Origin: an uncultured virus (IMG/VR IMGVR_UViG_3300005675_000019)
Taxonomy: Duplodnaviria; Heunggongvirae; Uroviricota; Caudoviricetes
Virus record (IMG/VR): IMGVR_UViG_3300005675_000019
Direction: 5' to 3' (one strand)
DNA: 64,000 bases
The notes below the pieces were generated by a model, which worked only from the letters and a program-made list of their open reading frames with translations, had not been told where the DNA came from and searched no databases. The translations under genes and the position numbers were made by a program. Positions 2,712 to 37,852 of this stretch are shown in pieces; position 1 is the stretch's first letter; each line of letters opens with the position of its first letter.

Positions 2712-2815
2712 GTGGTGTCAAGGCCACTCATCAGTAAGCAAGTTTCGGGCAGTCTGTTTCGTGCGTTGGGCGCTTACTCCCTCCTTGACCGCACTTAGCA
2801 GCCTGCCCAAAATTT
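2712..2815 (+). ncRNA. C4-like antisense RNA cassette 1 (target boxes plus structured RNA)
   Basis: Box a GTCAAGG 2717-23 in a GTGG/CCAC hairpin; box b AGTAAGC 2733-39; stem 2740-59/2797-2815 encloses GCTTACT 2772-78 and CCTTGAC 2783-89. Confidence 0.7.
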
Positions 2816-2830
2816 TTGGAAAGCCAAAAC

Positions 2831-3607
2831 ATGAGCACCGAACTTCAAGTAATCGTCAACAATCAACCATTGACCGTGGCCCTGCCAGAGCGCCTGGCCC
2901 CGGTCGCGGTCCTGCTTCCGATCGTGACCCGCCTCTTCAGCAAGGACAGGCACACCGTGGTCCTGGCCAAGGACCTGTTCGCCCGTCTGGGCGGCAGCTA
3001 CAGGCCGGGCCGCTGGTTGGAGGGGGTCATCAAGGACTGCCGCCTTGAGAAGGACGTGGACTACTTCGAGGTTGAACTAGACCCGTCAGACCCTGCCAAC
3101 TTCCAAGCCATAGCAGCAAACAAAGGCGTGGCCCCGGTCTACACCTACTTCACGTTGAAGGCGACGAGGAAGATCACCCTGCGGTCGAGTGCTGAAGAAG
3201 CCCACATCTTCTTCGAGTTCGTGGACGCGGTCCTGGACGCGGTCGTGCCCAGCCTGTTGACCAAGCTCACGGCAGCCAACCAAGAAGCCACCCGCCAGCG
3301 CTCTCTCGCTGACAGAAACGAAGCCGTAGCCCTGGCCGCAGTCAAGAAAGTTGACGGGAAACTGAACATCACCCAGTTCGAGTCCGCCGAACAGATCAAG
3401 AAGCGCCTCGGCATCACCCAGGCACGCCTCTGCGACGCCGAACAAGCCGCTTTCGCGCTCTGGGAGTACTCCAGCAAGGCACGCCGGGCGCTGGCCGCCA
3501 GCAAGCCACAGCAGGCCGTGGAAGCCCTGCAATACCTGGACAAACTCTTCGGAAACTACAGCGACCTGCTGCGCGACACTCCTCCGTGGAGCAACAACCA
3601 GAGCTAG
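2831..3607 (+). CDS. AntA/AntB-like antirepressor or DNA-binding protein
   Basis: AKDLFARLG...RWLEGVIKDCRLEKDVDYF resembles the AntA N-terminal domain; coiled-coil C-terminus. Confidence 0.6.
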   Translation: MSTELQVIVNNQPLTVALPERLAPVAVLLPIVTRLFSKDRHTVVLAKDLFARLGGSYRPGRWLEGVIKDCRLEKDVDYFEVELDPSDPANFQAIAANKGVAPVYTYFTLKATRKITLRSSAEEAHIFFEFVDAVLDAVVPSLLTKLTAANQEATRQRSLADRNEAVALAAVKKVDGKLNITQFESAEQIKKRLGITQARLCDAEQAAFALWEYSSKARRALAASKPQQAVEALQYLDKLFGNYSDLLRDTPPWSNNQS

Positions 3608-3634
3608 ACCAGCAGCACCATTGAACTAACCGTC

Positions 3635-3655
3635 GCCCCACCTGTGGGGCTTTTT
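3635..3655 (+). terminator. Rho-independent terminator
   Basis: GCCCCA-CCTG-TGGGGC plus TTTTT. Confidence 0.75.
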
Positions 3656-3678
3656 GTCGTCTGAAGAAAGGAAGAGCC

Positions 3679-4303
3679 GTGTACACGACCCTGAACAAAA
3701 TCAAGTCTCATGACCCTTGCGCTAGAGGCTGGAGGACCCTGCTCACTGCTTTGGGCAAAACCAAGGCTGATGACGATCCCGTATCTATGGCCTTCATCCT
3801 ACAGTCCAACGGCTTTGAGGATGCCGTCTGGACCTTCAAGTGCCTAGCAGGAGCTGATCGAGAGATTCGGCTCTTTGCAGTGGACTGCGCCCGCCAAGTG
3901 CAGCACCTCATGACTGACCCTCGGTCACTGGCAGCGCTTGATGTTGCTGAGCGTTTTGCGAACGGGTTAGCAACTTCCGAGGAATTGGACGCAGCCAGGG
4001 CCGCAGCCTGGGCCGCAGCAGACGCAGCCAGGGACGCAGCCTGGGCCGCAGCAGACGCAGCCTGGGCCGCAGCCAGGGACACAGCCTGGGCCGCAGCCAG
4101 GGACACAGCCAGAACCGCAGCCAGGGACACAGCCAGAGCCGCAGCCTGGGACACAGCCTGGGCCGCAGCCAGGGACACAGCCAGAGCCGCAGCCTGGGAC
4201 ACAGCCAGGGACACAGCCAGAGCCGCAGNNNNNNNNNNNNNNNNNNGCCTGGGACACAGCCAGAGCCAAGCAGGAAGAACTCTTCCTGAAGTACTTCGGG
4301 TAG
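3679..4303 (+). CDS. Phage protein with AARAAAW low-complexity repeats (spans an assembly gap)
   Basis: TTLNKIKSHDPC...RLFAVDCARQV N-terminus; N gap 4229-4246 shifts the frame; probable true end AKQEELFLKYFG-TAG at 4303. Confidence 0.7.
3991..4267 (+). repeat. In-frame 12-nt tandem repeat (RCAGCCWGGGMC-like)
   Basis: Repeated GCAGCCTGGGCC, GCAGCCAGGGAC and ACAGCCAGAGCC units; contains the N gap. Confidence 0.9.
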
Positions 4304-5347
4304 GTTGCCACTTCCCTAGGCAGTAACCAGTGTCTGGAAATCCCGCCTGACGCACAGTAAGCAGTATTCAACCAAGGAGAGTCAAAATGTCACACCGCTA
4401 TCAACAACCCCTCTGGGTCAGCATGGCCCAACGGCTTGTCAACATCGCCCAAAGAGATCTGGCCCGCAAAGCACGCCGGGCTGCCGCAATCAAGGCCCTG
4501 TACACGATCGAGAGCCGGGCAACGTTCCGGGACGGAGGCAAGGCAAGTGGCTAGGCCCTGCCTCAAGACGATCAGCCCGAGGCACGGCTTTGTGGTCGAG
4601 GCTGTGCCCACTATCAGCGGGTGCGACTGGTACGAATACCTCACAGGTGACGCCCCAGCCCACTACGCAGCCGTGCTGGACTGCACCTATGAGATGACCC
4701 TGGACCTGGTCGCGGCCAACGCCATAACACCGGCAGCAGCCGTGGCCCAGGTCATGAAGGATGAGCACTGGAAGGTCTTGCCAACGCATGTCAAGGCCAT
4801 TATCAAACGAGTTGAGGAGGATTAAACATGTGCTTCAGACTTTACGCAGAGTACGACCAAGTAGCTGTCCGCACAGCTAGGAAGTACAACGACCTGCAAA
4901 AGGCAGTCCAGGTGGCCAAGACAATCAAAGCCAAGGCCGTGTACATCCGGGACCTGCTCCCGAGCGGAAAGGAGCGACTGGTTGATGTCGTGACAGGAGG
5001 GCGCAGTGTCACGTTCGGCTAACCGACCACCGAGTGAGAACAGCCGGCGTTACTCGCCGGCTTTCAGCAGAAAGTGCAAGGCATCAGTCTTGCGACACAT
5101 AGCAAGGAAGGAGCAGAAACATGCACAGACGCAAGAAATATCTGGTCTACAAGAAGGACTATAACCCGCTCGTTGACACCTACCAGACTAGGTACTCGAA
5201 GTACCAGGCCTGGAAGTGTGCCGTGAGGATGGGCGCAGGAGCGTCAGTGATGGCCTGCTTCTACCAGCACCCTGGCCCCTTCAAGATGTGGACCAGGTCC
5301 TGGTCCGAAGATTTGTGGGTAGTCGTTTAATCAATAAGGAGAAAAGC

Positions 5348-7102
5348 ATGTCAAATCTTATGGATGTGCCGAAGTACAGACTCAGGACTCATATTCGCAA
5401 CAACATCAACAGCGCCAATCACCGTTGCAGGAGCTCACCTGTATCAAATAATGATCCTACGATCAAGAGGATCATCAAGGAGTTCGGCACCCCTGTTGGG
5501 CCACGCTACCGGGTGAAGAACCTCAACGTGTTCCTCCAGATTCTGGAGGAGATTGGGCCTTACACGGCTGATAAGGTCATGCCGGAGCTGGGGATGGCCT
5601 ATGGGTCCAGAGTACGGAAGTCTTATGACTGGGATTGTGATGTCTTTTCTGCTGCCCGGTGGATGATGCGTGATCATGATCGCCACATGTACTTGACCCA
5701 CCTCGTCCATGTCTCGGAGGTGGATAACACCCAGGTCGCATTCACGCCAGACGCGAGATCCCTGATTGCCGACAAGCAAATCCGCATGAGGCCGGGCAAG
5801 TACCTTACGAAGTACTGGGGGAGCGGGTCTCTGCGCCCACTCTTCAGTGACGACGAGGTCAGAGACATGGTCGAGCGCCTTGCAGCACTCAACACCCCGA
5901 GAGAGCTGCACCTGATCCCCAACACCGACCCGGATGGGTGGGAGTGGGTGTATGAGAACAGCCCACCCTCATGCATGAGGCACAACAGGGTGTCCCGCTA
6001 CCTCAAAGACGGTCTGCATGGTAGGGACCACCCTGTTAGGCTGTATGCCCACCCAGATAACGACCTGGCCCTGGCCTACATCATGGTTGATGGGGAATCG
6101 GCCCCGAAGGACTACACGTTTTGGTCCGACGAGGACGAGTCCGTGGTTGCAGCACGAGCCATCGTCAACGTGGACCTCAAAACCTACCTCCGCATCTACT
6201 GCAGCGGAGACACGGACGCCACCAGAGTCATGGAAGTCACGCTGGCCAAGGCCGGCTTCACCCAATCCAACGACACGTTGGCTGGCCAGAAACTGGTCAG
6301 ACGCACCTATGACGGCAGGATCATCTGTCCGTACCTCGATGGGAATTACGCCTATGTCGAGGATGAGGGGGACTGCCTGACCATCTCCAGGGGCGGGCTG
6401 GGCAGGCAGAACAGCGGGGGTTTGATCGGTGGTGTGACATGCCCCTGCTGTGAAGAGACGGTGCGGGATGAGGACAGCCTCACCTACGTCGAGGCCAGAG
6501 GTGAGGCAATTTGCCAGAACTGCCTGGAATACTACGTCTATGCCTGGGTCACCCGCTGGAGACAAGAGTGGGTGCATGGCGAAGACGACGACCTTTACCA
6601 GTACAACGGGGACTACTACACCAGCGAGGGCTTGGCTGGGCATGGGCTCTCGATCTGCGACCACTGCGGGGAGATCGAGGACGACGACAATATGGTCGAT
6701 GCCGAGGGCCAGTGGGTGTGCGAGTGCCACACCACGACGTGTGAGGTCAGCGACGAGACCATCCTGAGGGAGGACAGCACGTACAGCGACTACGATGGGA
6801 CGATCGCCGACAAGTACCGGGTCAGACTGTACCCTTGCGGTGGTTATGGGCACGAGGACAGGGTCTTCAGCTTGACAACTTCGCGGGGTGTAACCCATGT
6901 GCACATGGAGTTCATCAAGGACGCATCCGAGGCTGAATTGAGGGAGCACTTTGTGGTTATCGGCACTGAGTTGCTGCCCGCCTCCCTATATGGTGAATAC
7001 GGGCGACCGCCTAGGCATGGTGACACCTACACCAACGTCACGTCAGGTGATGACTGTGACGACAGCATCGAGTCCTACATGGACGCGACCCTGGAAGAAT
7101 AG
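5348..7102 (+). CDS. Large phage protein with C-terminal CxxC zinc ribbons
   Basis: AAGGAG RBS; PGKYL, PSCM, ARAIV, RIY and PYLD motifs; CPCC, CQNC, CDHC and CECH pairs. Confidence 0.8.
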   Translation: MSNLMDVPKYRLRTHIRNNINSANHRCRSSPVSNNDPTIKRIIKEFGTPVGPRYRVKNLNVFLQILEEIGPYTADKVMPELGMAYGSRVRKSYDWDCDVFSAARWMMRDHDRHMYLTHLVHVSEVDNTQVAFTPDARSLIADKQIRMRPGKYLTKYWGSGSLRPLFSDDEVRDMVERLAALNTPRELHLIPNTDPDGWEWVYENSPPSCMRHNRVSRYLKDGLHGRDHPVRLYAHPDNDLALAYIMVDGESAPKDYTFWSDEDESVVAARAIVNVDLKTYLRIYCSGDTDATRVMEVTLAKAGFTQSNDTLAGQKLVRRTYDGRIICPYLDGNYAYVEDEGDCLTISRGGLGRQNSGGLIGGVTCPCCEETVRDEDSLTYVEARGEAICQNCLEYYVYAWVTRWRQEWVHGEDDDLYQYNGDYYTSEGLAGHGLSICDHCGEIEDDDNMVDAEGQWVCECHTTTCEVSDETILREDSTYSDYDGTIADKYRVRLYPCGGYGHEDRVFSLTTSRGVTHVHMEFIKDASEAELREHFVVIGTELLPASLYGEYGRPPRHGDTYTNVTSGDDCDDSIESYMDATLEE

Positions 7103-7134
7103 ATCGAAGAAGAGATCGAAGAATTGGAGGCAGC

Positions 7135-8160
7135 ATGAACCACATTGACCTGGGTAGAATCACCCAAATCCTCACCTACAAGAGGCCACATGGCTCCCAA
7201 GGGGTCGAGGACCTGATCAGGGACATCTTCGCGGGCTACACCTACACCACCTTCCAGGACGAGCTGGGCGCGGACCTGGCCCTGGTCATCACCGTGGGCA
7301 AGAGCAAGACCCTGTTCTCCTGCCACCTGGACACGGTCCACCACTCGTCCGGGTACCAGACCGTGATGTGGGACGAAGGCATCGCCCTGTTCTACAAGGA
7401 AGACGTGAACGTGGTCCCGATCAAAGGCAAGGTCCCGCCCGTGCTTCAGTTCGGTGAGCCCCTCGGGGCGGATGATGGGGCAGGCATCTGGCTGCTCCTG
7501 AACATGATCGACGCCGATGTTCCGGGCACCTACATCTTCCACTTCGGTGAGGAGAGGGGCGGGGTCGGGTCCCGTGGCATGGCCATGTTCCATGATGATT
7601 GGCTGGCCGAGTTTGATCGAGCAATCGCGTTCGATCGGCGGGACACCGACAACATCGTCACCCATCAGATGGGAGGGCGGTGCTGCTCCGACGAGTTCGG
7701 CGCAGCCCTGGCCAGCGCCCTGAACGCAGCACAGCCCGCTTTCACGTACCAGCCCGATGACAGCGGCGTCTTCACAGACACAGCCAACTACACCGACCTC
7801 ATAGGCGAATGCACCAACGTGTCATGTGGCTATGACCGGGAGCACAGCCCGGACGAGACCCTGGACATGGAGCACCTCAGCATGCTGCGGCAGGCCTGCA
7901 TCGAGATCAAGTGGGAGGAATTGCCCACCGTCCGCAAGCCGGGCGAGGTCGATGAGGAGGAGTTCAAGGCGAGTGCCACAGGCTTGAGGAGTTACTGGAC
8001 CGACCGGTACGAGGAGGTGCCGGAAGACCTCACGAAGATGAACTACTGCCAGCTAGAGGCCTGGGTCGAGGCCCAGGTCCTACTCAAGGACACGTGGAAG
8101 ATCACGGAAGCCCTGTGGGAAGCGCTGGAGTCCTCTAGGGGCAGGTTCTGGGAGGCCTGA
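7135..8160 (+). CDS. M20/M28-family zinc peptidase
   Basis: SCHLDTV, GADDGAG, GEERGGVGS, AFDR and EH metal-binding motifs. Confidence 0.85.
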   Translation: MNHIDLGRITQILTYKRPHGSQGVEDLIRDIFAGYTYTTFQDELGADLALVITVGKSKTLFSCHLDTVHHSSGYQTVMWDEGIALFYKEDVNVVPIKGKVPPVLQFGEPLGADDGAGIWLLLNMIDADVPGTYIFHFGEERGGVGSRGMAMFHDDWLAEFDRAIAFDRRDTDNIVTHQMGGRCCSDEFGAALASALNAAQPAFTYQPDDSGVFTDTANYTDLIGECTNVSCGYDREHSPDETLDMEHLSMLRQACIEIKWEELPTVRKPGEVDEEEFKASATGLRSYWTDRYEEVPEDLTKMNYCQLEAWVEAQVLLKDTWKITEALWEALESSRGRFWEA

Positions 8161-8292
8161 GATGATCAAGCAACTGAAGGCCTTCCTGATAGGCATACTC
8201 ACATGCAAGAAGCCCTACAGAACAACGTGGGATTCATTCGACGAACTCGCGGCCTACGAGCTGGGCCGCGAGGGGACAAGGAGGATTTTGAA

Positions 8293-8682
8293 ATGAACGA
8301 TAAGTTGAAAAATGCGGCAACAGCAGCCGGTGGAACCTTACTGTTAGTCCACATGCCTCCCATTCCTCTCGGAAAAAACGGGGGTTGTGGTGCTAGAACC
8401 CATGTAGAAGGAACGAATCGCGGCACGATGCCGTGCGGAAGTTTGTTGACTCAGTTTGGCAATACCGAGCCGTACTACTGTGCTCGCTGCGATCAAGAGC
8501 GTAAAAGGCCAAAATATTTTGTAATCGTTGATTGTGAGCGGGTCGAGCCGCTTATCAACTGCGCCAACTTTGAAGATGCGGTAGAAAGAGCCGACCTGTG
8601 CTGGCCAAACAACCACACGTGGGTCTCCACAAAAGACTCACTGAGAAGCCTGCGCAAGGCTCTTAATGCACTTGATATTTGA
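8293..8682 (+). CDS. Hypothetical protein, lower GC, flanked by direct repeats
   Basis: ATG 8293; GAGG(A/G)TTTTGAAATGA at 8281 and 8681. Confidence 0.6.
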   Translation: MNDKLKNAATAAGGTLLLVHMPPIPLGKNGGCGARTHVEGTNRGTMPCGSLLTQFGNTEPYYCARCDQERKRPKYFVIVDCERVEPLINCANFEDAVERADLCWPNNHTWVSTKDSLRSLRKALNALDI

Positions 8683-9176
8683 GGGTTTTGAAATGAGAGT
8701 CGAACTAACACTCTACATCGACTACGACAGCGGCGACTTCGAGGACATCAGGATGCGATTGTACGACGCTGCTGAGCACCTGTACGACAACGGCCTGCTG
8801 ACTGGTAACGACCCTGACATAGAGATCAGTAGCTGTACCCACTCCGTGACCCTGGTGCACCCTGATCGTGACTCCCTGAGCGTCCCTACTTACAGTTGGA
8901 AGTGGGGTAGTACTGGACCTGAAGGAGAGCCGAAATGAAAATCGAATTCGACAACTACCGGCAGCGCAACGTACTGAAAGAAGCGCTGATGAACTACCTG
9001 TCCGCTCGTATGCTGGGTTTTGAACGCTTCCCGCTGTATAGCGAGGATCAGTGGGAGGTCATAGCACGTGCCTACGTCAATCACAGGTACGCCTCCCATA
9101 CCCCAGAGTTCAGAAAGGTCAAGGTCCTGGAGAAGATCGAGGACTTCAAGGCGGTCAGATCAATCATGGAGGCACT

Positions 9177-9554: not shown

Positions 9555-10592
9555 GCCCCGACGCTGATTACATCGTAGTTAGGCCTTGTACCACAGCCAT
9601 CATCGCCTGGGCCGACAACACGTGGGAGTACCTGGAGGACTACAGCCCCGAGGACTGGACCCACATGAGTGACGACTACGCCATTATGTACCTGCCAGCA
9701 GGCGCGGACGAGGACCAGATCGAGGAGTATGTCCGGGCATTTAACCGAGGAGAGGGCGAGGCATGGACCGCCTCCTGAACAACCTCACCGTCCTGGCCAT
9801 AATGGCCACCCTGCTGGGGGTTCCAGCATTTATTCACTACAGTGTTATGGGGTATTGAGAATGAAAACGATTGAAGAGAAACTCGCCATCTACAAGGCAT
9901 ACCTTGAGGGCAAGGAGATTGAAGTCAAGTATTACGGGGAAGGTGAAAAGTGGGGGCCTCCTGCGTATATGCCCTCGTTTAACTACGCACAGTATGACTA
10001 CAGGGTGAAACCTGAGCCGGTCAAGCCTGTCGTGGCCAAGGCCTACATCATGTCTGAGGGTTATGTGATCTGGACCATAACCGATCCAATTTACCCGCAC
10101 ACAGACTCCACCCGCGCCCCCGAGTTCGACATCGTGGCCAAGGAAGTTCCGTGAAGTCCTTCATCTACACCTACCACGAAAAGACCAAGTCCAACGGGGT
10201 CGAGAAGACGGTCAACGTCTACCGCATCTACAAGAACCGGCTACGCCCTGTCGGCACGATGACTGACATGTTTGTGTCGGAGTTCCAACTGGTAATGCAA
10301 ATGCTGGAAAAGGCACAAGCCCTGCCAGCAGTGGCGTTTGCCCGGCACCCTAACGGCTGCCCAATCTATGGTAATGCCTGGCGGCTGGAGCAGGACGGCA
10401 TTGCGATTGTGGAGCGGGTGGTATGACCGAACTACTCAACTACGTGCAACTGGACTTTGTAGCCATTGGTGTCATCTTATTCATTTTGTGGAGGTGTTTA
10501 TGAACAACATCGAAATCTTCTTACTCGTTCTGCTGTGGTGCCTGCTCGGCCCGCTCAGTGTCCTGATCATGTACCCACCGGAGGAGTGACCT

Positions 10593-17493: not shown

Positions 17494-17564
17494 GCCGAGA
17501 TGTGCGTAAGTAACGCAACCCAAGTGTAAAGGGAAGATTGCGGGTTCGAGTCCCGCCCTCGATA
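17494..17564 (+). pseudogene. Degenerate tRNA-like element (possibly derived from tRNA-Thr(UGU))
   Basis: Perfect T arm GCGGG-TTCGAGT-CCCGC; D stem TGCGT/ACGCA; broken acceptor and anticodon stems; ACTA instead of ACCA. Confidence 0.55.
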
Positions 17565-26098: not shown

Positions 26099-26158
26099 AT
26101 GTCCGTAATGCCGTTACGCCCTTGACCGAGGAAGGTCAAGGGCGTAGCCTGTCGGCTG

Positions 26159-26258
26159 CCACTTGGAGGTGGAAAATGACAAAACAGTAGAATCCCTGGT
26201 GCCGGCCTGTCCCCGGTCCTCCAACGCTCGCAAGAGTGACCAGGGATTCTACTGTTTT
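26159..26258 (+). ncRNA. C4-like antisense RNA cassette 2
   Basis: Box a TTGGAG in a CCAC/GTGG hairpin; box b GACA; perfect 20-bp stem 26181-200/26239-58 enclosing CCTGTC, CTCCAA and a GCAA-loop hairpin. Confidence 0.75.
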
Positions 26259-26267
26259 CAACTAGGA

Positions 26268-26945
26268 ATGCAGATGAATACAATAAGAAGACCGGCGATA
26301 GAGTCGGCTGGAGAACGTTTTGGCAGGTTGGTTGTGACTGCCATATTTCCAGGCAAAAAAGGGGCAGTTGCTAAGGCGAAGTGTGACTGTGGAGGGGAAT
26401 GGGAAGGGCCACTTAATTCTCTGAGGAAGAAGACCACAAAGTCGTGTGGGTGTATGGCCAGGAAAAAGACAAACAATGGTATTAAAACCCACGGTATGTC
26501 AAAGTCTCCTGAATTTAAGATATGGGCTGCTATTAAGACAAGGTGCTTTAACGAAAACACCCATTCATACAAGAATTATGGAGGAAGGGGCATAACTCTA
26601 TTCGACCCCTGGGTTAACGACTTTCAAGCCTTCTATGCCTACGTAGGTCCGAGGCCTAGCAATAATCACAGCATAGAGAGGTCTGACAATAGTGCAGGGT
26701 ATGTACCGGGTAACGTGTCTTGGCAGACTAAAAAGGTACAGGCTAACAATAATAGAAGAAATCATCTGGTAACTATAGATGGTGTGACAAAGAACATGAT
26801 GCAGTGGTGCGCACTATACAACCGAAGGTACCACACTGTATATGAGCGTATAACTAAATGTGGGTGGGATGTGAAGTCGGCTCTAACCACACCAACTGCA
26901 AGGCCGTATGTTGAGGTTGGTGCCTGTGAGGAAACTGACTCATGA
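26268..26945 (+). CDS. Freestanding HNH homing endonuclease
   Basis: GERFGRL...CDCG...SCGC...YGGRGI...HSIER.DN..GY.PGN; low GC. Confidence 0.88.
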   Translation: MQMNTIRRPAIESAGERFGRLVVTAIFPGKKGAVAKAKCDCGGEWEGPLNSLRKKTTKSCGCMARKKTNNGIKTHGMSKSPEFKIWAAIKTRCFNENTHSYKNYGGRGITLFDPWVNDFQAFYAYVGPRPSNNHSIERSDNSAGYVPGNVSWQTKKVQANNNRRNHLVTIDGVTKNMMQWCALYNRRYHTVYERITKCGWDVKSALTTPTARPYVEVGACEETDS

Positions 26946-29794
26946 CAATGTATCTCTTTTACCAGATGGAGGGGAAATCCAAATGGATTCCAGCTCTGGC
27001 CACAGAGCGGGAGAATATTGCAAAGACCTACAAACCGGCACTGATCAGTGTCCTGGACGTGGACAACTCGTTTGACACTGACCTTACAGGGGATGAGATA
27101 CGGGCGCTGAGATATTCGGGCTCTTTCTACGCTGACTTTGATGCAGAGGACATCGAGGAAGCCACCGAGCAGTTCAAGGTATTCCTCCTCAAGCTGAAAG
27201 CCATGAACGTGGACCTGGACATGCTCCGGCTCTACGCCACAGGCAAGAAGGGCTACCACATCGAGGTCCCGGCCCAGATGTTCATGGGCAAGGTACCAGT
27301 GGCCGGCGTGCTGCACCTGCCTCACATCTACCGGGAGATGGCCTACGGCCTCTTCGTAGACACGCTGGACATGAACGTGTATAGCACCAAGCGTGGCCGT
27401 CAATGGCGTTGTCCTAACGTCAAGCGGGCCGACAACGGCAAGTACAAGGTCCAGATCAGTGCTGAAGAAGCACTGACCATGACGCCCGAGACCTACGCTG
27501 GGGTCTGCAACAGCCCCCGCAACGCCCTGCCGATCGAACCACCCAGCCTCAACGCGGACCTGGGCCTGCTCTACGCCCAGTCAAGGGACAAGGTCGAGAA
27601 AGCGGTCGCCCGGAAGAAGACACGCAAGGTCGTGGACAGCCCTCTGGCACGCTTCAAGGGTGAGTGGCCAGACACCTTCGAGGGCATCCTCCACGGCGTC
27701 ACCATCAAGCCGGGCGTGGGCTGGAACCACATCTCGATGCAGCTTGCCATCGTGGCCGCCGAGCTGGGCAAGACCGAGGACCAACTGCTCAAGGATGCAG
27801 CCGGCGTCATCGAGAGCCACGAGAGCGACAGCTCCCGCTACAACAGCCCGGCCAAGCGGCGCACCGACCTGCGGGACATGTTCCGGTACTGCAACGGCAA
27901 CCCGACGATGGAGTACAGCGTTGGCGCGATCATGGCCCTGCTCATGCCCGAGGTCAGGGCCAACTCTGACATCATCTTCGGGGAGTTCCTCCCGGACGCG
28001 GTCGAGCCCGCCGCCCCGGCAGCGCCCCGCAAGGAGGGGGACCCGGAGCCAGCCCCGGCAGCGCCCGTGTCACTGGACGAGAACGGGGGTCAGCTCCGCA
28101 TCAGCAAGCAGGGCATCTTCGCCCGCTGCGACGACGGCTACCGAAACATCTGCGACCTGGGCCTGCAGAACCCACTGGCCATGGCCCAGCTTGGTGGCGA
28201 CAACCTGGGCTATGAACTCGACGTGACCCTAGATGGTAAGCCAAGAGGGAAGAAGTTCCTGCCCATGAACGCACTCGCAACCCGGTCCCAATTCAACAAC
28301 TGGGCACTACTTTTAGGAGCCTCAATGCGTGGATCTGATCAGCAAGTAAGCAGCCTCGCGGACCTGTTCCGCAAAGGCACCACCAACACGGTGTACGCCG
28401 TGGAGCGGGAGGGGATTGATGTCGTCACACCCCCCGGCGCTGACTCGGCTGACGACGAGGATGTGATCTGGGCAGCACCCGACAAGGTAACGTGCCTCCG
28501 GGAGGGGGTCAGCTACCGATACAACGGTGTCTACAATGCGGGTGGCACCTACCGATCGGACCTGATGCACGCCCCGGAAATGACCACTGAAGATGAGGAC
28601 TATATCAGCGACCTGCTCCAGATCAACACGAGCCAGAACGTGGCCAAGACCCTGGGCTGGTTCTGCGCTGCCTTCCTGACGCAACTGATCAGGCGCAAGT
28701 TCAAGAGGTTCCCCTCGCTCCAGGTCTACGGGCAGGCAGGGGCGGGCAAATCCATGACTGTGATCCTGCTGAACCACCTGCACTACCACATGGTAGAGCC
28801 ACGACAGTTCGGCGTCGCCGGCCAGACCCACTTCCCGATCATCGCCGCCGTCGCCGCCTCGGCATCGCTGCCCCTGGTCTTTGAGGAGGTCAAGCGCCGA
28901 CAGCTCCACAAGAGCATGCTCGACTTCCTACAGAATATCCTCCGGTCCAACTACACGGCTGACCACCTGTCACGGGGCAGCCTGGGCCGGGACAAGTCGG
29001 TGCGGGAGCTGACCGTGACCAACTTCACGAACAGCGCCCCGATCGCCTTTGTCGGTGAAGCTCTGGAAGACCAGAGCGCGATCCTGGAGCGCTGCGTGTG
29101 CGTGGCCATGTCCAAGACTGATCGGTCAGGTCGGGACAAGTACTTCGAGCGATGCCTCGACAGTGCCCACAAGATGGGCCGTATCGGCAAGTCCCTGGCC
29201 ATGGCAGCTCTGGCCATTGACCGGGAGTGGCTTCATTCACAGGTCATGCTCAACCTCAAGACAGTCACCGGGAAGGTGACCTCGACCATGGCGGACGACG
29301 CCGCTCGCCCGGCCTACAACCTGGCCGTGACCCTGACCGGTCTCGACTTCCTGAAAGGGACCCTGGCCCGTGTCTTTGGCACCCTCTTTGATGCCAGGCT
29401 TGATGAGCTGCGTGACAGCATCCTCGACAACGTCATGGACAGCATCCCGAGGAACCTGAGTGAAGTCAGCCGCGTCCTCGATACGATGGCCGACCTGACA
29501 CGTAACGCTGATGACACCTTCAGGATGGTCCAGAACGTGGACTATGTGGTCAAGGACACGTACATCGAACTGAAGCTGCGCAATGCCTTTGACAAGTACG
29601 TCAGGTACCAGCGCAGCCTGGGCCTGGAGGTGCTGTTTGACAGCCATAATGCCTGGCAGTCGGCACTGATCAACTACGGTGGCACCATGCAGCGGGCTGT
29701 ACCTGACAGCATCATGTGGGACTCGCCACGGGCTGTCATCTTTAAGTTGTCGTTGGCCTACCTCGATAAGGAGGGGGTCAATACTTTTGCGTGA
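26942..29794 (+). CDS. Primase-polymerase (AEP) fused to a P-loop helicase
   Basis: ADFD and TGKKGYH AEP motifs; GQAGAGKS Walker A; LVFEE Walker B. Confidence 0.82.
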   Translation: MTMYLFYQMEGKSKWIPALATERENIAKTYKPALISVLDVDNSFDTDLTGDEIRALRYSGSFYADFDAEDIEEATEQFKVFLLKLKAMNVDLDMLRLYATGKKGYHIEVPAQMFMGKVPVAGVLHLPHIYREMAYGLFVDTLDMNVYSTKRGRQWRCPNVKRADNGKYKVQISAEEALTMTPETYAGVCNSPRNALPIEPPSLNADLGLLYAQSRDKVEKAVARKKTRKVVDSPLARFKGEWPDTFEGILHGVTIKPGVGWNHISMQLAIVAAELGKTEDQLLKDAAGVIESHESDSSRYNSPAKRRTDLRDMFRYCNGNPTMEYSVGAIMALLMPEVRANSDIIFGEFLPDAVEPAAPAAPRKEGDPEPAPAAPVSLDENGGQLRISKQGIFARCDDGYRNICDLGLQNPLAMAQLGGDNLGYELDVTLDGKPRGKKFLPMNALATRSQFNNWALLLGASMRGSDQQVSSLADLFRKGTTNTVYAVEREGIDVVTPPGADSADDEDVIWAAPDKVTCLREGVSYRYNGVYNAGGTYRSDLMHAPEMTTEDEDYISDLLQINTSQNVAKTLGWFCAAFLTQLIRRKFKRFPSLQVYGQAGAGKSMTVILLNHLHYHMVEPRQFGVAGQTHFPIIAAVAASASLPLVFEEVKRRQLHKSMLDFLQNILRSNYTADHLSRGSLGRDKSVRELTVTNFTNSAPIAFVGEALEDQSAILERCVCVAMSKTDRSGRDKYFERCLDSAHKMGRIGKSLAMAALAIDREWLHSQVMLNLKTVTGKVTSTMADDAARPAYNLAVTLTGLDFLKGTLARVFGTLFDARLDELRDSILDNVMDSIPRNLSEVSRVLDTMADLTRNADDTFRMVQNVDYVVKDTYIELKLRNAFDKYVRYQRSLGLEVLFDSHNAWQSALINYGGTMQRAVPDSIMWDSPRAVIFKLSLAYLDKEGVNTFA

Positions 29795-29801
29795 TGGTTA
29801 G

Positions 29802-30975: not shown

Positions 30976-31001
30976 TCTAACAATAAGAACAAGAGGCAAC
31001 C

Positions 31002-31673: not shown

Positions 31674-31703
31674 CACCACAACAACTAGAAAGAGGCATCC
31701 AAT

Positions 31704-31940
31704 ATGGCAACTGAAATCACCAAGTATCTCGACTCCGCTGGCAAAGAGTGGCCGACCGCCGTTGAAGCGGACGCATCCGACGCCAAGCTCGCCAACCAGG
31801 CAGCCGTTGAGAAGTTCGTCGGCGAAAACTACAGCCAGACCACGACCAATGGCCGCAAGTCGCCGGCAGCCCGCGCCGCCGCCAACGCCATCTACAAGTG
31901 GCTCGGCAGCCAGAACGCAGCGTTCTCGCTCGAAGCCTAA
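31704..31940 (+). CDS. Small hypothetical protein
   Basis: GAGG RBS; biased codons; followed by a terminator. Confidence 0.7.
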   Translation: MATEITKYLDSAGKEWPTAVEADASDAKLANQAAVEKFVGENYSQTTTNGRKSPAARAAANAIYKWLGSQNAAFSLEA

Positions 31941-31962
31941 GCGGTCAACGACGGCGTAGTTC

Positions 31963-31988
31963 AGGCCCCCACTTCGGTGGGGGCTTTT
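31963..31988 (+). terminator. Rho-independent terminator
   Basis: AGGCCCCCAC-TTCG-GTGGGGGCTT plus TT. Confidence 0.85.
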
Positions 31989-32006
31989 CCATATCAAGGA
32001 GAGAGC

Positions 32007-32366
32007 GTGGACATCGAAACGTACAGCACGTTAGCACTGAGAACAGCCCCAAGGGGTTACACATGGACAGACGAAATTACCCACGCATCATTGGGTATTG
32101 GGGGCGAAGCCGGTGAGGTCCTGGACCATGTCAAGAAGGCGGCGTTCAACAACAGATCACTTGATCACGACCACCTGGTTGCTGAAGTTGGAGACCTGAT
32201 GTGGTACCTGAACCTGCTGGTGGCGTCTCTGGGTACTACTTGGGGCCACGTCCTGTCAGTTAACATCGCCAAGCTGGAGGCCCGTTACCCCGATCTGAAG
32301 TTCGACGCCGAGCACTCCCTGAACCGTGACCTGGCCGCAGAGAAGGCGGCGATGGAGTCGGTGTAA
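32007..32366 (+). CDS. MazG-like NTP pyrophosphohydrolase
   Basis: LGIGGEAGEV...EVGDLMWY...NIAKL..RYP. Confidence 0.88.
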   Translation: MDIETYSTLALRTAPRGYTWTDEITHASLGIGGEAGEVLDHVKKAAFNNRSLDHDHLVAEVGDLMWYLNLLVASLGTTWGHVLSVNIAKLEARYPDLKFDAEHSLNRDLAAEKAAMESV

Positions 32367-33262
32367 TGGACCGGGTCGAGGTCTTCAAGGCGGCGTTGAT
32401 GCGCTGCTGCCGAAGGTACTGCCGGGCCGGCGTCAACGGCCCCAGGCTGGTGACGTTGGAGACCCTGCCCTGGGTCACCAACAAGGTCTTCTTCGGTCTC
32501 CCGCTGCGCAGCGTCATGTCGCCTCCGGTCCCCGCTACAGGGATTGAAACCGAGGCGATTTTTGACGCCTGGCTCTGGCCGAAGTTTGCTGGCGAGGGTG
32601 ACTCTGTCGAGGACCTGGTCACGGCCAGCTCAGTGGCGCTGAAGAACTGGGTGATCCTGGGCAAGGACTTCAACGAGCAGACGCTGCGCCTGCTCTATGC
32701 CTTGGGCAATGCCGAGGGAGCGACCCTGGCCTTTGACAAGGCTGCCATGATGGTTCACCACGGCGACAGGTCCTACGGCATCATCGACGGTGCGATCCAC
32801 AGCCGGTTCTGCACCGGGCTAAAGGTGGGGACTGACCACTGGGCGTGGCTGCACAAGCGGCACAAGGTCAACTTCACGGACGAGCACCTGTGCTCCCTGT
32901 GGCAGGAGGCCTACCGGCGCGGACGTGGGGCGGTGGATGCGGTCACGGCCCTGTGGCAGGGTAATCCTGACATCTCATGGAGGGCAGTGCTGAAGACACG
33001 GGTACGTCGGGACCCGCCGAGCCAGGCCACGTTCGATAAGTGGGTGGCCATCCTCTGCACACCCGGCGATGCCCTCGCCATCCTGTACCCGAAGCTAGTA
33101 CCGCAGTGGATGAGTACTGGTGAGTTCTCCAAGGTGTTCTGCAGGTTGGCAGTTCGGAAAGAGAACCCGTCAGAGAGAGCCCTTCAGGGGTATATCACCC
33201 GGTTGTACAGGTTCATGTATGAGGGGGTTCAAAAGCCAGTCGGTAAGACTGACTCCGAGTAG
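32366..33262 (+). CDS. Hypothetical protein (298 aa)
   Basis: Long ORF coupled to the MazG-like gene; no motif recognised. Confidence 0.7.
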   Translation: MDRVEVFKAALMRCCRRYCRAGVNGPRLVTLETLPWVTNKVFFGLPLRSVMSPPVPATGIETEAIFDAWLWPKFAGEGDSVEDLVTASSVALKNWVILGKDFNEQTLRLLYALGNAEGATLAFDKAAMMVHHGDRSYGIIDGAIHSRFCTGLKVGTDHWAWLHKRHKVNFTDEHLCSLWQEAYRRGRGAVDAVTALWQGNPDISWRAVLKTRVRRDPPSQATFDKWVAILCTPGDALAILYPKLVPQWMSTGEFSKVFCRLAVRKENPSERALQGYITRLYRFMYEGVQKPVGKTDSE

Positions 33263-33290
33263 CACAACAATAACTATAAAGAAGAATAAT

Positions 33291-33830
33291 ATGAAAATCA
33301 TTGGAATTACCGGCCTTGCCCGCAGTGGCAAGGATAGCATCGCCAAATACCTCTGGGCCGAGTATGGTTACACCCGTATCGCTTTCGCCGACCCGCTGAA
33401 GATGGCGGCACAGCACATCTTCGGCCTGACTGCCGAGCAAACCTGGAACGAGGACCTGAAGGAGGTCGTGATCGAGTACTGGGGCATGTCCCCACGGCAG
33501 ATGTTTCAGAAGCTGGGCACGGAAGCAGTCAAGGGCACGTTCGGTGAGGACACCTGGTGCAAGCGCTGGGAACTCAGTTATGGCATCCTCGCATTGACGG
33601 ATGACGTGGTCGTCCCGGATGTCCGCACTGACGTGGAGGCGAGCATGCTCCGCTCTCTGGGCGCGGTCATGATCGAGGTCACCCGCAAGTCAGCGGGCCT
33701 AGATGGGGAAGACGGCAGGCACAGCTCCGAGAATGGGCTGAGCACCTTTGCTGAGTTCGAGATCACCAACGACGGCACGATGCAGGACCTGCATGATGCT
33801 GTGGATGTTGTTCTTGGGAAGCTGGGATGA
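33291..33830 (+). CDS. Deoxynucleoside monophosphate kinase
   Basis: IIGITGLARSGKD, FADPLK, PRQMFQKLGTE, DVR, HSSE. Confidence 0.92.
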   Translation: MKIIGITGLARSGKDSIAKYLWAEYGYTRIAFADPLKMAAQHIFGLTAEQTWNEDLKEVVIEYWGMSPRQMFQKLGTEAVKGTFGEDTWCKRWELSYGILALTDDVVVPDVRTDVEASMLRSLGAVMIEVTRKSAGLDGEDGRHSSENGLSTFAEFEITNDGTMQDLHDAVDVVLGKLG

Positions 33831-33894
33831 GCGCACACACCTTACATTCAGAGACGTGTGCCACAGCCTTGACCACCCAACCTGGAGGCGCAGG

Positions 33895-34164
33895 ATGAGC
33901 ACATTTCAAGAGGAGTCCGACCGCTGCGCGGACATGATCGACGCAGCGAGTGCCATCACGGAGACGTTCAACCGCCACAGTGAGGCCGCAGCACGGGCCA
34001 AGGCTGCACCGCAACAAAGACAGAACGCGGACGGCACGTGGCCGGTGACGGAATGTGAGTGCGGCGTGGAGATTGTCCCGGCCCGCCTTGCCCTGGGCCG
34101 GATCAAGTGCGTGGCCTGCCAGACCGAGCAGGAGTTACGGGAGAGGCAGTATGGACGTAGGTGA
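33895..34164 (+). CDS. DksA/TraR C4-type zinc finger protein
   Basis: ADMIDAAS...CECGVEI.PARL.L...CVACQ. Confidence 0.8.
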   Translation: MSTFQEESDRCADMIDAASAITETFNRHSEAAARAKAAPQQRQNADGTWPVTECECGVEIVPARLALGRIKCVACQTEQELRERQYGRR

Positions 34165-34432
34165 ACTCCGGCGTATCCGGGACGACGCAGTTGCAGAGAT
34201 GCACCGCCAGATTGAACTGGTAGAACCTGTCGATCTGCCCCACTGGTTGCTGATGAGCATGATGCTGCCCCTGTTTATGGGGGCAGCGCTGCAAATGACC
34301 GGGCGCATGCTCTGGACCCTGGTCGTGGGCTGGGTCAAGAGCCCCTTCAGCTTCCTGGCAATCTGGGCAGACTTGTTGGGGATCATGTGGTGGTTCCTCA
34401 AATCGAGTGTGGAAAGGATGGCACGGAAGTGA
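34151..34432 (+). CDS. Small membrane protein
   Basis: Long hydrophobic segments. Confidence 0.5.
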   Translation: MDVGELRRIRDDAVAEMHRQIELVEPVDLPHWLLMSMMLPLFMGAALQMTGRMLWTLVVGWVKSPFSFLAIWADLLGIMWWFLKSSVERMARK

Positions 34433-34520
34433 CGCCTGAATATCAGTGCGAAGTCGCAGCACAAAGTAAAGTCGCGCTGAGTTTCACATTCAGCACAGAT
34501 CAACGGAAAGGAGAAGCGCT

Positions 34521-37500
34521 ATGAGACGACTGATCGTGGATGTAAGCAGCCTGCTGTGGCAGTCGCTGCTGGCCGGCAAGGACAAAGAGTTCGGCATGGT
34601 TGTGGAGCACGAGGGTAAGGAGGTCCATGTCAATGGGTGGCAGTTCGGGCAGGAGTGTGCCATCAGCCACCTGCTCAGCGTCATGGGCGAGCTGGACGTG
34701 GTCCCGATCGAGACCATTTTCGTGGTCGAGGGCGCGTACTCGAAGCAGCGCCGGAAGGCCATCTACAACGGGTACAAGGAAGGCCGGGACTCTCGCCACA
34801 GCCTGGCCTATGAGCAGTTCAGCATCCTGCGGGACAAGCTGACCCAGACCTTCCGTAACCTGGGCGCTCAGATCGTGACCCAGGAAGGGGTCGAGGCTGA
34901 CGACATCATCGCCTACCTGGCCCGCAACCTCGACGGCGAGAAGGTGATCCTGACGACGGACGGGGACATGGCGACACTGATTGGCCCGGACGTGGCTCTC
35001 TGGCGCGGCGGCATGCTGACCCGTGAGAACCCCTACGGCCCCTTCCCCCACAAACTCATCCCGGTGTACAAGGCCCTGGTCGGGGACGGAAACGAGTACA
35101 AGGGCGCAACCCGGTTCGGGCCGAAGACCTTTCTCGACTTCCTGGTCTGGGCCGGCGAGGGCGGCCTGGCTGCCCTTGAGGGGATGATGAAGCGGCGGAC
35201 GTTGCATGAACTGGCTGATGACGTGGCTGAGTTCAAGCCTCTGAAGCTGATCGTCGACAGCGCCGAGCACGTCTACCAGTCCTACGACTGCGCCCTGCTG
35301 CACGACGAGTGGGTCAACACCCTGCGCCAGCCGCTGGAGTGGAAGGCTGGCATGGTCAAGCCAGTCAGCGCGTTCGAGGACAAGCGGCTGCACAAGTGGG
35401 CGCAGCAAGTGCGCTTGGTCGTGAGAAGCAACTACGATCAGGCTGCCTCATTTCTCGCGCAGCAGACGGGCAAGTCTGCCTTCTTCTGCCTAGACCTGGA
35501 AACTACAACCCCGGACGAGTCCGACGAATGGTTGGCACTCCGCACAACCAAAGGCGGGGGCGTGGACGTGATCGCTTCCACCATTGTGGGTTGTGGCCTT
35601 ACGTTCGGAAGGAACCAACAGTACGGCTTTTACTGTTCTGTTGACCACGCCGGGACCGACAACATCTCGTTGGACCAGTTACAAGGCCTGCTGGAGCTGA
35701 TCCCCCACGATAAAATGACCGTGGCGCACAACGCAGCAGGATTTGAGATACCCGTCCTGTTCAATGCGTTCGGCCAGAAGTGGGCCAGCAACGGCTGGCG
35801 CGGCATGTTCCCGAACATGGTTGATAGCCGGATAGCGGCCAGCTACTGGGATGAGAACCAACCTAGCCACGGGTTGAAGCAACTATCTGCGAAGCTGCTA
35901 GATTACCAGCAGCAGACCTACGAGGAAGTGACCGAAGGCAGGAAGATGGACGCGCTCACGGCGCAGCATGTCCTGTCCTACGGCCTGGATGACGTATTCT
36001 GTACGGTCGGTGTGTGGAACCTGTTTGTGACGGTGATGAAGTTAGAGAAGACGTGGGACGCCTTCATACGAGTCGAACAACAGCCAATGTACCTGTCCGC
36101 TTTATCCTACGTTCAGGGTACGCCGATCTCTTTGGAACGCCTGTTCAAACTAAAAGCCGAGGACGAGAACAAGTACACGGAGTATGAAAGTACTTTGAAC
36201 ACGTACCTGGTTGAGAAGGGGTGGAGCGGCACGAAGTGCCCCGTCCTGACTGAACTCACCCCCTCGGGCATCAAGGAAGCGGTTCAAGTCATCCTCGGCA
36301 CTCCGCTTGAAACCGCAGTGAGGACCGTATCAAAGCTGGCCAAACTGATAGATGTCATGGATCACGAGGATGCCCCGCTTCTGGCCAAGCTAGTCCAGGA
36401 TGCTGACATTCCGCAGATAAACGACTGGATGTCACGCCGGTTTGACGGCACACCTGATCTGAACGTCGGCAGCAACAAGCAGTTGGTGACCTTGATGTAC
36501 GACACCATGGGGCTGCCCATTCGCTTGCGCAACAAGGCAACTGATACGATGCGGGCCAAGGGGATTCGAGAAGGCAACCCCCGCGCCGACGATGACGCCA
36601 TGGCGATGGCCATCAAGAGAGGGGACGCTTCCCCGGAAGTGGCCCCTGTGCTGGAGGCCTTGAGCGCAATGAAGTCGATCAACACTCGGCGGGGTCTGTA
36701 CTGGGAGGCGTACCCCAAGATGGTCCATTGGAAGGACCGGCGTCTGCACCCGGAAGTTCGCCAGTGCGCTACCAACACTCGGCGGCATACCAGCGGAAAC
36801 CCGAACATCCAGCAACTGGACTCTGGGTATGGCGGGGTGCGCTCAGTATTTGTTCCCCACCACAAGGACGCTGTGATCGTGTCCTGTGACTTAGCCGGGC
36901 AGGAGATTCGCCTTCTGGCTGACATGTCCAGGGACGAGAACATGATGTCGGCCTACATGGGAGACGACCTGAAGGACCTGCACTCCTTCACGGCGGCTAT
37001 GGTGCTGGGGATACCGTATGACGAGTTCCGCACCCGGTACAAATCGGAAGACCCTGCCATAGCTGAGGCTGCTTACAACGCCCGCCAAAACGGGAAGATC
37101 ACCTTCTTTGCTTCCTCCTACGGTGCGATGGCACCGAAAATTGCAGAGGGTCTTGGCATCGAGGACGAGATAGCGCAAGGCTACCTCGACGCCCTCGATC
37201 GCGCCTTTCCACGGGTCAACATCTGGAAGAAGGAGACAGAAGACTTTGCCAGCCGGCAGGGCTGGGTCCCGCTCCATGGCGGGAATCGCCGACATCTGCG
37301 GGAACTGCTTCTGTCCGGGGACAAGTGGACGGCGCAGAAAGCCTTGAGACAGGCGTCCAATGCCTGTATCCAGGGTGCTGGTGGTAACCAGCTTCGCACC
37401 ATCATGGGCAGGATATGGAGCAGCGGTGTGCTGGACCGCTATGACCTGCGCTGGTACTGGCCATGTCACGACGAAATTATCGTGTCGGTGGGCAGGGCCG

Positions 37501-37691
37501 ATGCGGTGGCCTGCATCAAGGAACTGCACGGGATCATGTGCGAGCAGTTCCTGGACCTGCTTCCGTCCGCTTCCTCGATCGGTATCGGGGCGACGTTCGG
37601 GACCCTGATTGAGATAGGGGAGGTGCCAGAAGCCGCTCTGATTGAAGCGGCTTTGGATGAGATATTTGCCAAAACAGAGGCGACTGTGTAG
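34521..37691 (+). CDS. polA: Family A DNA polymerase with 5'-3' and 3'-5' exonuclease domains
   Basis: YKEGR, EADD and DGD (5' exo); DLETT, HNA and YGLDD (3' exo); DLAGQEIR, R...K...F...YG and HDE motifs. Confidence 0.95.
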   Translation: MRRLIVDVSSLLWQSLLAGKDKEFGMVVEHEGKEVHVNGWQFGQECAISHLLSVMGELDVVPIETIFVVEGAYSKQRRKAIYNGYKEGRDSRHSLAYEQFSILRDKLTQTFRNLGAQIVTQEGVEADDIIAYLARNLDGEKVILTTDGDMATLIGPDVALWRGGMLTRENPYGPFPHKLIPVYKALVGDGNEYKGATRFGPKTFLDFLVWAGEGGLAALEGMMKRRTLHELADDVAEFKPLKLIVDSAEHVYQSYDCALLHDEWVNTLRQPLEWKAGMVKPVSAFEDKRLHKWAQQVRLVVRSNYDQAASFLAQQTGKSAFFCLDLETTTPDESDEWLALRTTKGGGVDVIASTIVGCGLTFGRNQQYGFYCSVDHAGTDNISLDQLQGLLELIPHDKMTVAHNAAGFEIPVLFNAFGQKWASNGWRGMFPNMVDSRIAASYWDENQPSHGLKQLSAKLLDYQQQTYEEVTEGRKMDALTAQHVLSYGLDDVFCTVGVWNLFVTVMKLEKTWDAFIRVEQQPMYLSALSYVQGTPISLERLFKLKAEDENKYTEYESTLNTYLVEKGWSGTKCPVLTELTPSGIKEAVQVILGTPLETAVRTVSKLAKLIDVMDHEDAPLLAKLVQDADIPQINDWMSRRFDGTPDLNVGSNKQLVTLMYDTMGLPIRLRNKATDTMRAKGIREGNPRADDDAMAMAIKRGDASPEVAPVLEALSAMKSINTRRGLYWEAYPKMVHWKDRRLHPEVRQCATNTRRHTSGNPNIQQLDSGYGGVRSVFVPHHKDAVIVSCDLAGQEIRLLADMSRDENMMSAYMGDDLKDLHSFTAAMVLGIPYDEFRTRYKSEDPAIAEAAYNARQNGKITFFASSYGAMAPKIAEGLGIEDEIAQGYLDALDRAFPRVNIWKKETEDFASRQGWVPLHGGNRRHLRELLLSGDKWTAQKALRQASNACIQGAGGNQLRTIMGRIWSSGVLDRYDLRWYWPCHDEIIVSVGRADAVACIKELHGIMCEQFLDLLPSASSIGIGATFGTLIEIGEVPEAALIEAALDEIFAKTEATV

Positions 37692-37694
37692 TCT
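37666..37694 (+). promoter_or_regulatory. Sigma70-like promoter overlapping the polA stop
   Basis: TTGCCA-17 nt-TAGTCT. Confidence 0.5.
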
Positions 37695-37747
37695 CAATCA
37701 AAGGTGCCAGTAGCGCCAAAGTGTGCAGTCTTGTACAATACAGGCAT

Positions 37748-37852
37748 CGCTTGGCCGCGTGTTTAATACTCCAGGGAGGATCGGATTCCCCACTGCACAT
37801 CCTGGATGTGTCGGCCAATCTCGCGTAAGCGGGAAGTGGGGAACCCGATCCT
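37748..37852 (+). ncRNA. C4-like antisense RNA cassette 3
   Basis: Box a TTGGCCG 37751-57 in a CGC/GCG hairpin; box b TCCAGG 37770-75; stem 37777-94/37835-52 enclosing CCTGGA, CGGCCAA and a GTAA-loop hairpin. Confidence 0.75.

Follow-up and report, generated by a model that had tools for sequence, protein, structure and literature searches.

Three short leader cassettes, at 2712-2815, 26159-26258 and 37748-37852, precede genes in a stretch of 64,000 nucleotides (nt) from an uncultured tailed phage (IMG/VR record IMGVR_UViG_3300005675_000019), here referred to as the window, and raise the question of what kind of switch they form and which genes it serves. Each cassette carries two boxes, a and b, that are complementary to two boxes further downstream, anti-a and anti-b. 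In a first-pass annotation they were read as copies of the C4 antisense RNA layout of phages P1 and P7, restraining an antirepressor and two HNH nucleases. All six box pairs lie where that annotation placed them, on the plus strand, to which the coordinates below refer. The reading preferred here, to which a probability of about 0.55 is assigned, is that of a kinetic attenuator that is shut by its own terminated RNA and hitch-hikes with HNH genes.

Cassettes 2 and 3 are members of one family, and cassette 1 represents a separate one. The family model of cassettes 2 and 3 misses cassette 1, and the model of cassette 1 misses the other two, so that the annotated lack of obvious sequence similarity applies to cassette 1 and not to the remaining pair. 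Cassettes 2 and 3 share sequence and form three-way junctions, which consist of a closing stem P1 of 17-20 base pairs (bp), a 5-bp arm (P2) with anti-b in a 7-nt loop, seven unpaired anti-a bases and an arm (P3) capped by a GNAA loop. In cassette 2, the leader hairpin and box b are found at 26159-26181 (box a 26163-26169, 4-nt box b 26178-26181) and the junction at 26181-26258 (anti-b loop 26206-26212, anti-a 26218-26224, P3 with its GCAA loop 26225-26238). Its boxes a and anti-a pair at 7/7 positions, one base more than annotated. In cassette 3, part of the promoter, the hairpin and box b span 37734-37775 (-10 box 37734-37739, box a 37751-37757, box b 37770-37775), followed by the junction at 37776-37855 (anti-b loop 37800-37806, anti-a 37812-37818, P3 with its GTAA loop 37819-37834). 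The folds have z-scores of -8.8 (cassette 2) and -5.7 (cassette 3), and the family model scores 86 and 67.7 bits, respectively, both cassettes being part of its training set. A two-box match equal to that of cassette 2 was obtained in 69 of 200,000 shuffled leaders and one equal to that of cassette 3 in 7 of 200,000 (uncorrected for site choice). The family models detect no fourth cassette in the window; a loose two-box scan for counting copies was too permissive and was abandoned in favor of these models. A pattern specific for cassette 2 matches only this phage. A variant of cassette 2 (window 26172-26262) that differs by an insertion of 3 bases and a deletion of 1 is present on a contig with a depth of ~1650 in sequencing run X5, where most of the region is covered far less deeply, and of 167 in run X12.

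To sample the family, a pattern was derived from the features common to cassettes 2 and 3, which retrieved at least 120 viral stretches. The same junction fold was recovered in 65/80 and 30/40 of the pattern matches, and in the 15 matches discarded from the first 80, box a agrees at only 4-5 of 7 positions, four of which are imposed by the pattern. The family set comprises 101 elements (60 distinct) and includes the two window copies and loci L145, L149, L168 and L169; four loci are this same phage, and P1 of L099 looks broken. All 60 distinct elements pair a with anti-a at 7/7 positions, in five sequence variants. Both elements found with a pattern that left box a open show a compensated change in the core of the box, and L173, outside the training set, adds a sixth, compensated variant. 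Box b, which no pattern fixes, matches its own loop over 6.25 nt on average, compared to 3.2 nt for foreign loops. There are 26 variants of the b loop and 25 codes; 21 of the 26 variants are complementary to their own leader over 6 nt or more, and two codes account for 25 of the 60 elements. In an alignment of 43 sequences, 96.6% of the cells in all six helices are paired, and 34 of 45 pairs have changed on both sides, a level reached by none of 500 shuffles and contrasting with 36-46% in slid controls. Kinship of the loci inflates these counts, although the slid controls and the comparison of own and foreign b loops agree in direction. The cassette 2/3 family is widespread and is without an Rfam model.

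G-U pairs outnumber A-C pairs by 66 to 2 and the GNAA loop is present in 59/60 elements, both of which fit an RNA from the plus strand; together with the U-run on that strand they rule out the opposite reading. A -10-like hexamer is found 10-15 nt ahead of box a in 55/60 elements, and 55/60 have 7-8 U within 8 nt after P1. Exceptions to the latter include cassette 2 (5 U in the best 8), cassette 3 (4 U) and the related cassette of L145. The annotated sigma70-like promoters are present, if imperfect. The primase-operon promoter-like site ahead of cassette 2 (26115-26150; -35 box 26122-26127, -10 box 26145-26150) has its -35 box and spacer enclosed by a perfect 13-bp palindrome (26115-26146), possibly an operator or replication signal. 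This palindromic promoter is kept in near relatives that lack cassette 2 and, with another loop and before a different leader, in the relative L144. The promoter of cassette 3, judged by eye rather than by a scan, combines a good -10 box with a poor -35 box.

Cassette 1 has the same two-box logic but not the same layout, as the third, GNAA-capped stem is absent and the closing stem is longer than in cassettes 2 and 3. Its promoter-like site (2677-2705) comprises a -35 box (2677-2682), a 17-nt spacer and a -10 box (2700-2705) that agrees with the consensus at only 3/6 positions and was missed by a strict consensus promoter scan; homologues L010, L016 and L160 have a better -10 box at equal spacing. 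The leader hairpin (2712-2727) shows box a (2717-2723) in its loop, followed by box b (2733-2739) and the long closing stem (2740-2817), in which anti-b (2772-2778) lies in the loop of a 3-bp hairpin and anti-a (2783-2789) in an internal loop. The stem ends in five consecutive U (2813-2817), its fold has a z-score of -4.1, and it is kept in four homologues. None of 200,000 shuffled leaders had an equal two-box match (uncorrected for site choice). Homologues of the gene behind this cassette were found at 14 metagenome loci, of which eight reach upstream of the gene start so that the leaders could be compared. Two of these equal the window sequence, and the rest represent three distinct leaders (L009; L010 with L012-L014; L016). 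A fourth, L160, is the one true member among 18 loci matched by a pattern based on cassette 1. Compensatory a/anti-a changes are found at two positions in all four homologous leaders and at a third in L010. For b/anti-b they are found in three (L010, L016 and L160), while L009 loses one terminal b pair. The two anti-boxes are complementary to upstream targets of their own transcript in five cassette 1 sequences. Lack of covariation among homologues had been named beforehand as refuting the annotation; both boxes covary in both families, and the C4-like two-box logic is supported by this. A resemblance of box a in cassette 1 to the palindrome of the primase promoter was dismissed as chance, arising through the letters of the -35 box, because the four homologues carry another a. 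A further promoter-like site, formed by anti-a of cassette 1 just before the gene (window 2785-2813), has no counterpart in the four homologues and could bypass the switch.

The box codes of the window genome are largely orthogonal. For cassettes 1, 2 and 3, the duplex energies of the boxes are -19.9, -14.8 and -23.0 kcal/mol with their own partners, versus -3.5, -8.7 and -6.5 kcal/mol with the best foreign ones. The annotated absence of cross-talk needs a qualification in one direction, as the RNA of cassette 2 pairs partially with the leader of cassette 3.

How the boxes and P1 exclude each other was examined by computing the folding of growing transcripts. Before the 3' strand of P1 is made, a/anti-a is paired in 59/60 and b/anti-b in 47/60 elements, and afterwards in 0/60; in the final fold both anti-boxes are single-stranded in 60/60. 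Box b abuts the base of P1 and, judging from this geometry, should therefore be unable to reach its loop once P1 has closed. The U-run behind P1 and the predicted order of folds point to an attenuator, with the box-paired state as the read-through state. Each cassette would thus act as the 5' leader of a transcript and as a two-state RNA switch with the logic of C4 and CI. In the nascent leader, cis pairing of a and b with their anti-boxes would block P1; once formed, P1 would yield a Y-shaped RNA (cassettes 2 and 3) or a hairpin (cassette 1) with both anti-boxes exposed and unpaired. In a typical member, P1 and the U-run would constitute an intrinsic terminator, through which the first transcripts would read. 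Since both anti-boxes are exposed on the completed short RNA, this RNA could bind a and b on transcripts made later. As terminated RNAs accumulate, such pairing in trans would allow timely formation of P1 and thereby silence the operon, a negative feedback specific for the box code. A precedent is CI RNA of phage P4, for which termination by pairing with the upstream site seqA is described in PMC4825925.

The genes headed by the family were tabulated for 68 loci with 900 bases of flank, which are not independent of one another. Replication initiators (DUF1376, O-like, HTH_36 and related families) dominate the table and not, as the first-pass annotation would suggest, HNH genes: an initiator is the first or second gene in 60/68 loci. 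It takes the first place in 39 of these, while in 11 a nuclease and in 10 another open reading frame (ORF) precedes it. A nuclease comes first in 17/68 loci; 11 of these have the initiator second, and six, four of which are this phage, have none in view. The remaining two loci have another context. The same cassette sequence can be found both with a nuclease inserted and without one (L024/L038; L032, L044 and L083; L034/L089). Among hand-picked genes, the upstream neighbor is often a small Cro-like regulator. Five near-complete carrier genomes measure 37-40 kilobases (kb); a tyrosine integrase is encoded in 1/5 and an S24 repressor domain in 0/5. A genome collection gave one match, in a betaproteobacterial assembly, the family model gave two matches over 151 genomes, and among phage and plasmid records two uncultured phage records and no plasmid matched. 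In the best model for these observations, the family belongs originally to the replication-initiator operons of small phages, and nucleases insert behind the leader.

Behind cassette 2 of the window phage, an HNH endonuclease gene of the phrog_374/3377 type (26274-26945; phrog_374, E = 6e-54) overlaps with its stop the start of the primase gene (26942-29794), the second gene under this cassette. Cassette 3 is followed by another HNH endonuclease gene (37877-38419; phrog_99, E = 6e-56; Pfam HNH_3 and a weak AP2 match). A 10-bp direct repeat at the ends of the polymerase gene (37681-37690) and of this HNH gene (38409-38418) probably bounds the insertion of cassette 3 and its HNH gene. Contigs of near relatives, mapped at 85% likeness, skip 26150-26975, i.e. 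cassette 2, its HNH gene and the first primase codons, in 2/4 runs from two studies (the intervening letters are not known), and join 37692 to 38668 without cassette 3, its HNH gene and the next small ORF in 2/4 runs from one study. Because these relatives lack cassette and HNH gene together, both cassettes appear to move with their nuclease at present, and the portability proposed in the first-pass annotation is borne out. Two further relatives, L145 (69%) and L144 (77%), were reached via the primase; both HNH genes are absent in each, and neither an HNH gene nor a cassette follows the polymerase. In L145, a cassette of the same kind (46.5 bits, outside the training set) stands directly before the primase gene, which indicates that the site of cassette 2 also exists without a nuclease. 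In L144 (a 68.7-kb record, 84% complete), the family model finds no cassette, and the palindromic promoter precedes the other leader without an HNH gene. A short hairpin at 9920-10000 of this cassette-free relative hides the ribosome site of the primase gene.

By sequence, the HNH genes of cassettes 2 and 3 are free-standing and optional among relatives. Relatives of the HNH proteins in viral contigs come from this phage only, apart from two at 35-43% identity without a cassette, and the best matches in cultured phages are ~41% identical. Homing in T4 involves co-conversion of flanks, according to PMC2988022, and insertion behind a leader with subsequent co-conversion of the flank would account for all three alleles. 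Homing nucleases would accordingly insert between leader and initiator, fall under the control of the leader and be able to carry it elsewhere. In this phage, cassette 2 would gate the HNH gene and primase, cassette 3 would have arrived with its HNH gene, and cassette 1 would gate an AntA-related gene.

Compared with known systems, the closest likeness is to the C4 RNA of P1/P7 (RF01695) and its a1/b1 target. As seen in PMC2864571, there too an upstream leader hairpin shows a 7-nt box that pairs with a junction strand, C4 rows compared by eye agree in almost every letter with cassettes 2 and 3 in the 5-bp stem and the junction strand, and a c4-a1b1 row carries the commonest box a of the family in its hairpin loop. 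Further common features are a second box, which is variable and is recognized by a hairpin loop, a three-stem RNA with a long P1 (in cassettes 2 and 3 and their family, but not in cassette 1 with its missing third stem) and two exposed boxes complementary to upstream targets (a1/b1, seqA) in the same transcript. The P1/P7 C4 layout proper, in contrast, is not what the cassettes show. The arm order of C4 in P1, P4 and N15 is tetraloop arm, variable-loop arm, junction box (rows of PMC2864571), whereas that of the family is variable-loop arm, junction box, tetraloop arm. The family has both targets within ~30 nt of P1 and no downstream a2/b2, ends in a U-run rather than in CACC as given for C4 in these rows, lacks icd and heads replication genes. 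The Rfam models C4, c4-a1b1 and c4-2, the first two of which had been proposed as a check, gave no match at E values up to 5 in the window, up to 1 in 20 family loci and up to 10 in four stretches of 180-200 bases. The c4-2 motif (Weinberg 2017) is regarded in PMC5737381 as probably a remote homologue of a previously described RNA. The family probably works like C4/CI and descends from it, while differing in Rfam match, arm order and downstream target. With P4 CI RNA (seqA, seqC), an RNA derived from a replication-operon leader brings about premature termination through pairing with an upstream site, and IsrK of Gifsy-1 has short and long forms from one leader (both from PMC4825925); the family differs in that a seqC-like downstream target is missing, the whole switch comprises ~110 nt with one terminator, and of its five near-complete 37-40 kb carriers four lack a tyrosine integrase and all five an S24-type repressor domain. 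The T4-like homing endonucleases I-TevI, segB and mobE are likewise headed by RNA structures that may limit expression. According to PMC2988022, these are single hairpins that hide the ribosome site and are relieved by a late promoter, whereas the cassettes are two-box, two-state leaders with their own promoter that mostly serve the gene behind the nuclease. The letters a and b are swapped here, as in the first-pass annotation, relative to usage, because PMC5320573 calls the variable loop a'. Background on immI is found in PMC8198154. No description of the cassette 2/3 family was found in the literature, where the alignments of PMC10690425 (Fremin 2023) and the supplements of PMC5737381 and PMC2864571 may hold it, and nothing was found that links an HNH endonuclease with a C4 antisense RNA in phage.

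Several observations weigh against the self-shutting attenuator. The family sample is biased by the pattern derived from cassettes 2 and 3, with mutually related loci, and covariation is blind to pairing in cis versus trans. A simple transfer to this phage is opposed by box b of cassette 2, which at 4 bp is the joint weakest in the family and whose pairing is not predicted in the folding of growing transcripts; in L145, the leader hairpin beats a/anti-a in the same test. With 4-5 U in 8, termination may therefore be weak in cassettes 2, 3 and L145. In these three, forcing a/anti-a lowers the predicted access to the ribosome site (0.76 to 0.40, 0.74 to 0.13 and 0.80 to 0.34, respectively), and the freed P1 strand can hide this site, which would reverse the sign of control. 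A terminated RNA retains its own a and b unless these are cut off. GGW at the base of P1 is found in 42/60 elements and CCA near the 3' end in 0/60. Contigs from RNA libraries span the region but are silent on transcription, ends and levels.

One alternative is a switch that acts in cis only, in which box pairing fixes the read-through fraction or a delay and the boxes drift with compensation, without any role in trans. Pairing in cis explains all covariation seen, folding in cis is computed to occur when it should, and codes are shared by many phages. This alternative is nevertheless judged rather unlikely: both anti-boxes are single-stranded in every final fold, the three codes of this genome differ, and the stems evolve much more slowly than the variable box, which resembles C4 with its specificity-setting loop (PMC5320573). 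The copies of this lytic phage could alternatively be translational with a positive output. In the box-paired state, the released 3' strand of P1 would then mask the ribosome site, and closure of P1, aided in trans by the short RNA, would turn on HNH gene and primase after a delay. The weak U-runs of cassettes 2, 3 and L145 would fit, as would the drop in ribosome-site access on forced a/anti-a pairing, seen in 3/3 of these and in 34/59 family members, and IsrK of Gifsy-1 is described to activate its own long form in trans (PMC4825925). We regard this as improbable, since no such effect is seen in cassette 1 (0.64 vs 0.63), the family norm is a terminator, and in cassettes 2, 3 and L145 P1 is favored by 14-29 kcal/mol, so that hiding of the ribosome site would be brief.

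The first-pass view that HNH genes recruited the module to restrain themselves draws on the joint absence of cassettes and HNH genes in near relatives (26150-26975 and 37692-38668), on the 10-bp repeat around cassette 3, on the 17 nuclease-first loci and on RNA structures that, according to PMC2988022, often hold down phage homing nucleases. It suits cassette 3 better than cassette 2. As the main role it is not supported and slightly more improbable still: the initiator is first in 39/68 loci and second in 11 of the 17 nuclease-first ones, the cassette of L145 precedes primase without an HNH gene, a cassette is missing from another two HNH genes in the window, and the flank co-conversion of PMC2988022 explains the hitch-hiking. 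Ordinary C4/CI copies, from which RNase P would excise an RNA of 75-80 nt to block a further a2/b2 site where the gene begins, are highly unlikely, even with a core by the junction that equals the C4 rows of P1, P4 and N15 and with GGW at the P1 base. Besides the lack of C4-clan matches on 180-200 bases and the different arm order, a downstream b target is absent within 150 nt (3.93 vs 3.99) and the a signal there is weak (4.6 vs 4.0; 9/60 at 6 nt, none at 7), and on these counts an a2/b2 target was rejected for the family. In some initiator genes of the DUF1376 type (L021, L026, L040 and others), six letters of box a occur within the first codons and are probably set by the protein. The attenuator shut by its own terminated RNA remains the preferred reading.

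The gene behind cassette 1 (2831-3607), with no small ORF between stem and gene, encodes a protein of 258 amino acids with a divergent, putatively AntA/AntB-related N-terminal domain that was assigned via homologues. The window protein itself has no AntA match in family searches. PF08346 (AntA) is matched, however, by 7/11 aligned homologues, those at 33-53% identity scoring 45-50 bits at a curated cut-off of 27, and because of these matches 'antirepressor' is a fair lead. The gene at 3679-4326 contains an alanine-rich repeat (phrog_18326) and a run of N near 4229-4247. At 17494-17564, a transfer RNA-like match scores 24.9 bits, below the Rfam gathering score.

The phage further encodes a helicase, the primase, a family A polymerase, a ligase, an SbcCD-like nuclease, a thymidylate synthase and a tape measure protein. 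Its replication module also contains an endonuclease VII-like gene (39547-40077) and the two additional phrog_374-type HNH genes (42255-42827 and 45994-46704), none of the three with a cassette. No cultured phage is close, the best polymerase matches being ~27% identical; near relatives of the phage occur in aquatic and wastewater runs. The polymerase (34521-37691) shares only its first 293 residues, at 69-72%, with ORFs at the same place in L144 (17515-20436) and L145 (11906-14842). The polymerase domain appears to have been swapped, because the remaining 680 residues of these ORFs are 64% alike between L144 and L145 and do not align with the window polymerase.

That C4 loops can carry an address code was known before from the heteroimmunity of P1 and P7 (box-code specificity in PMC12197685 and PMC5320573). 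With the cassettes, RNA control of the C4/CI type, so far a matter of a few temperate enterobacterial phages and prophages, extends to a compact family that Rfam misses and that heads replication-initiator operons of uncultured aquatic phages. They suggest how homing nucleases can transfer a whole regulatory leader between phages. They also provide a natural set of two-box switches of ~110 nt with 25 codes, which are candidates for orthogonal attenuators. More tentatively, as a possibility rather than an expectation, a rearranged one-piece relative of C4 might serve as RNA-only control of replication and superinfection in a large group of small aquatic phages that mostly lack an integrase and a cI-type repressor. 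Its 6-nt box would supply at least 25 incompatibility codes, and nucleases would export the switch to unrelated lytic phages, where new orthogonal codes would yield independent timers, one of them on primase. The family is a candidate answer to how such phages may dose their replication without a protein repressor.

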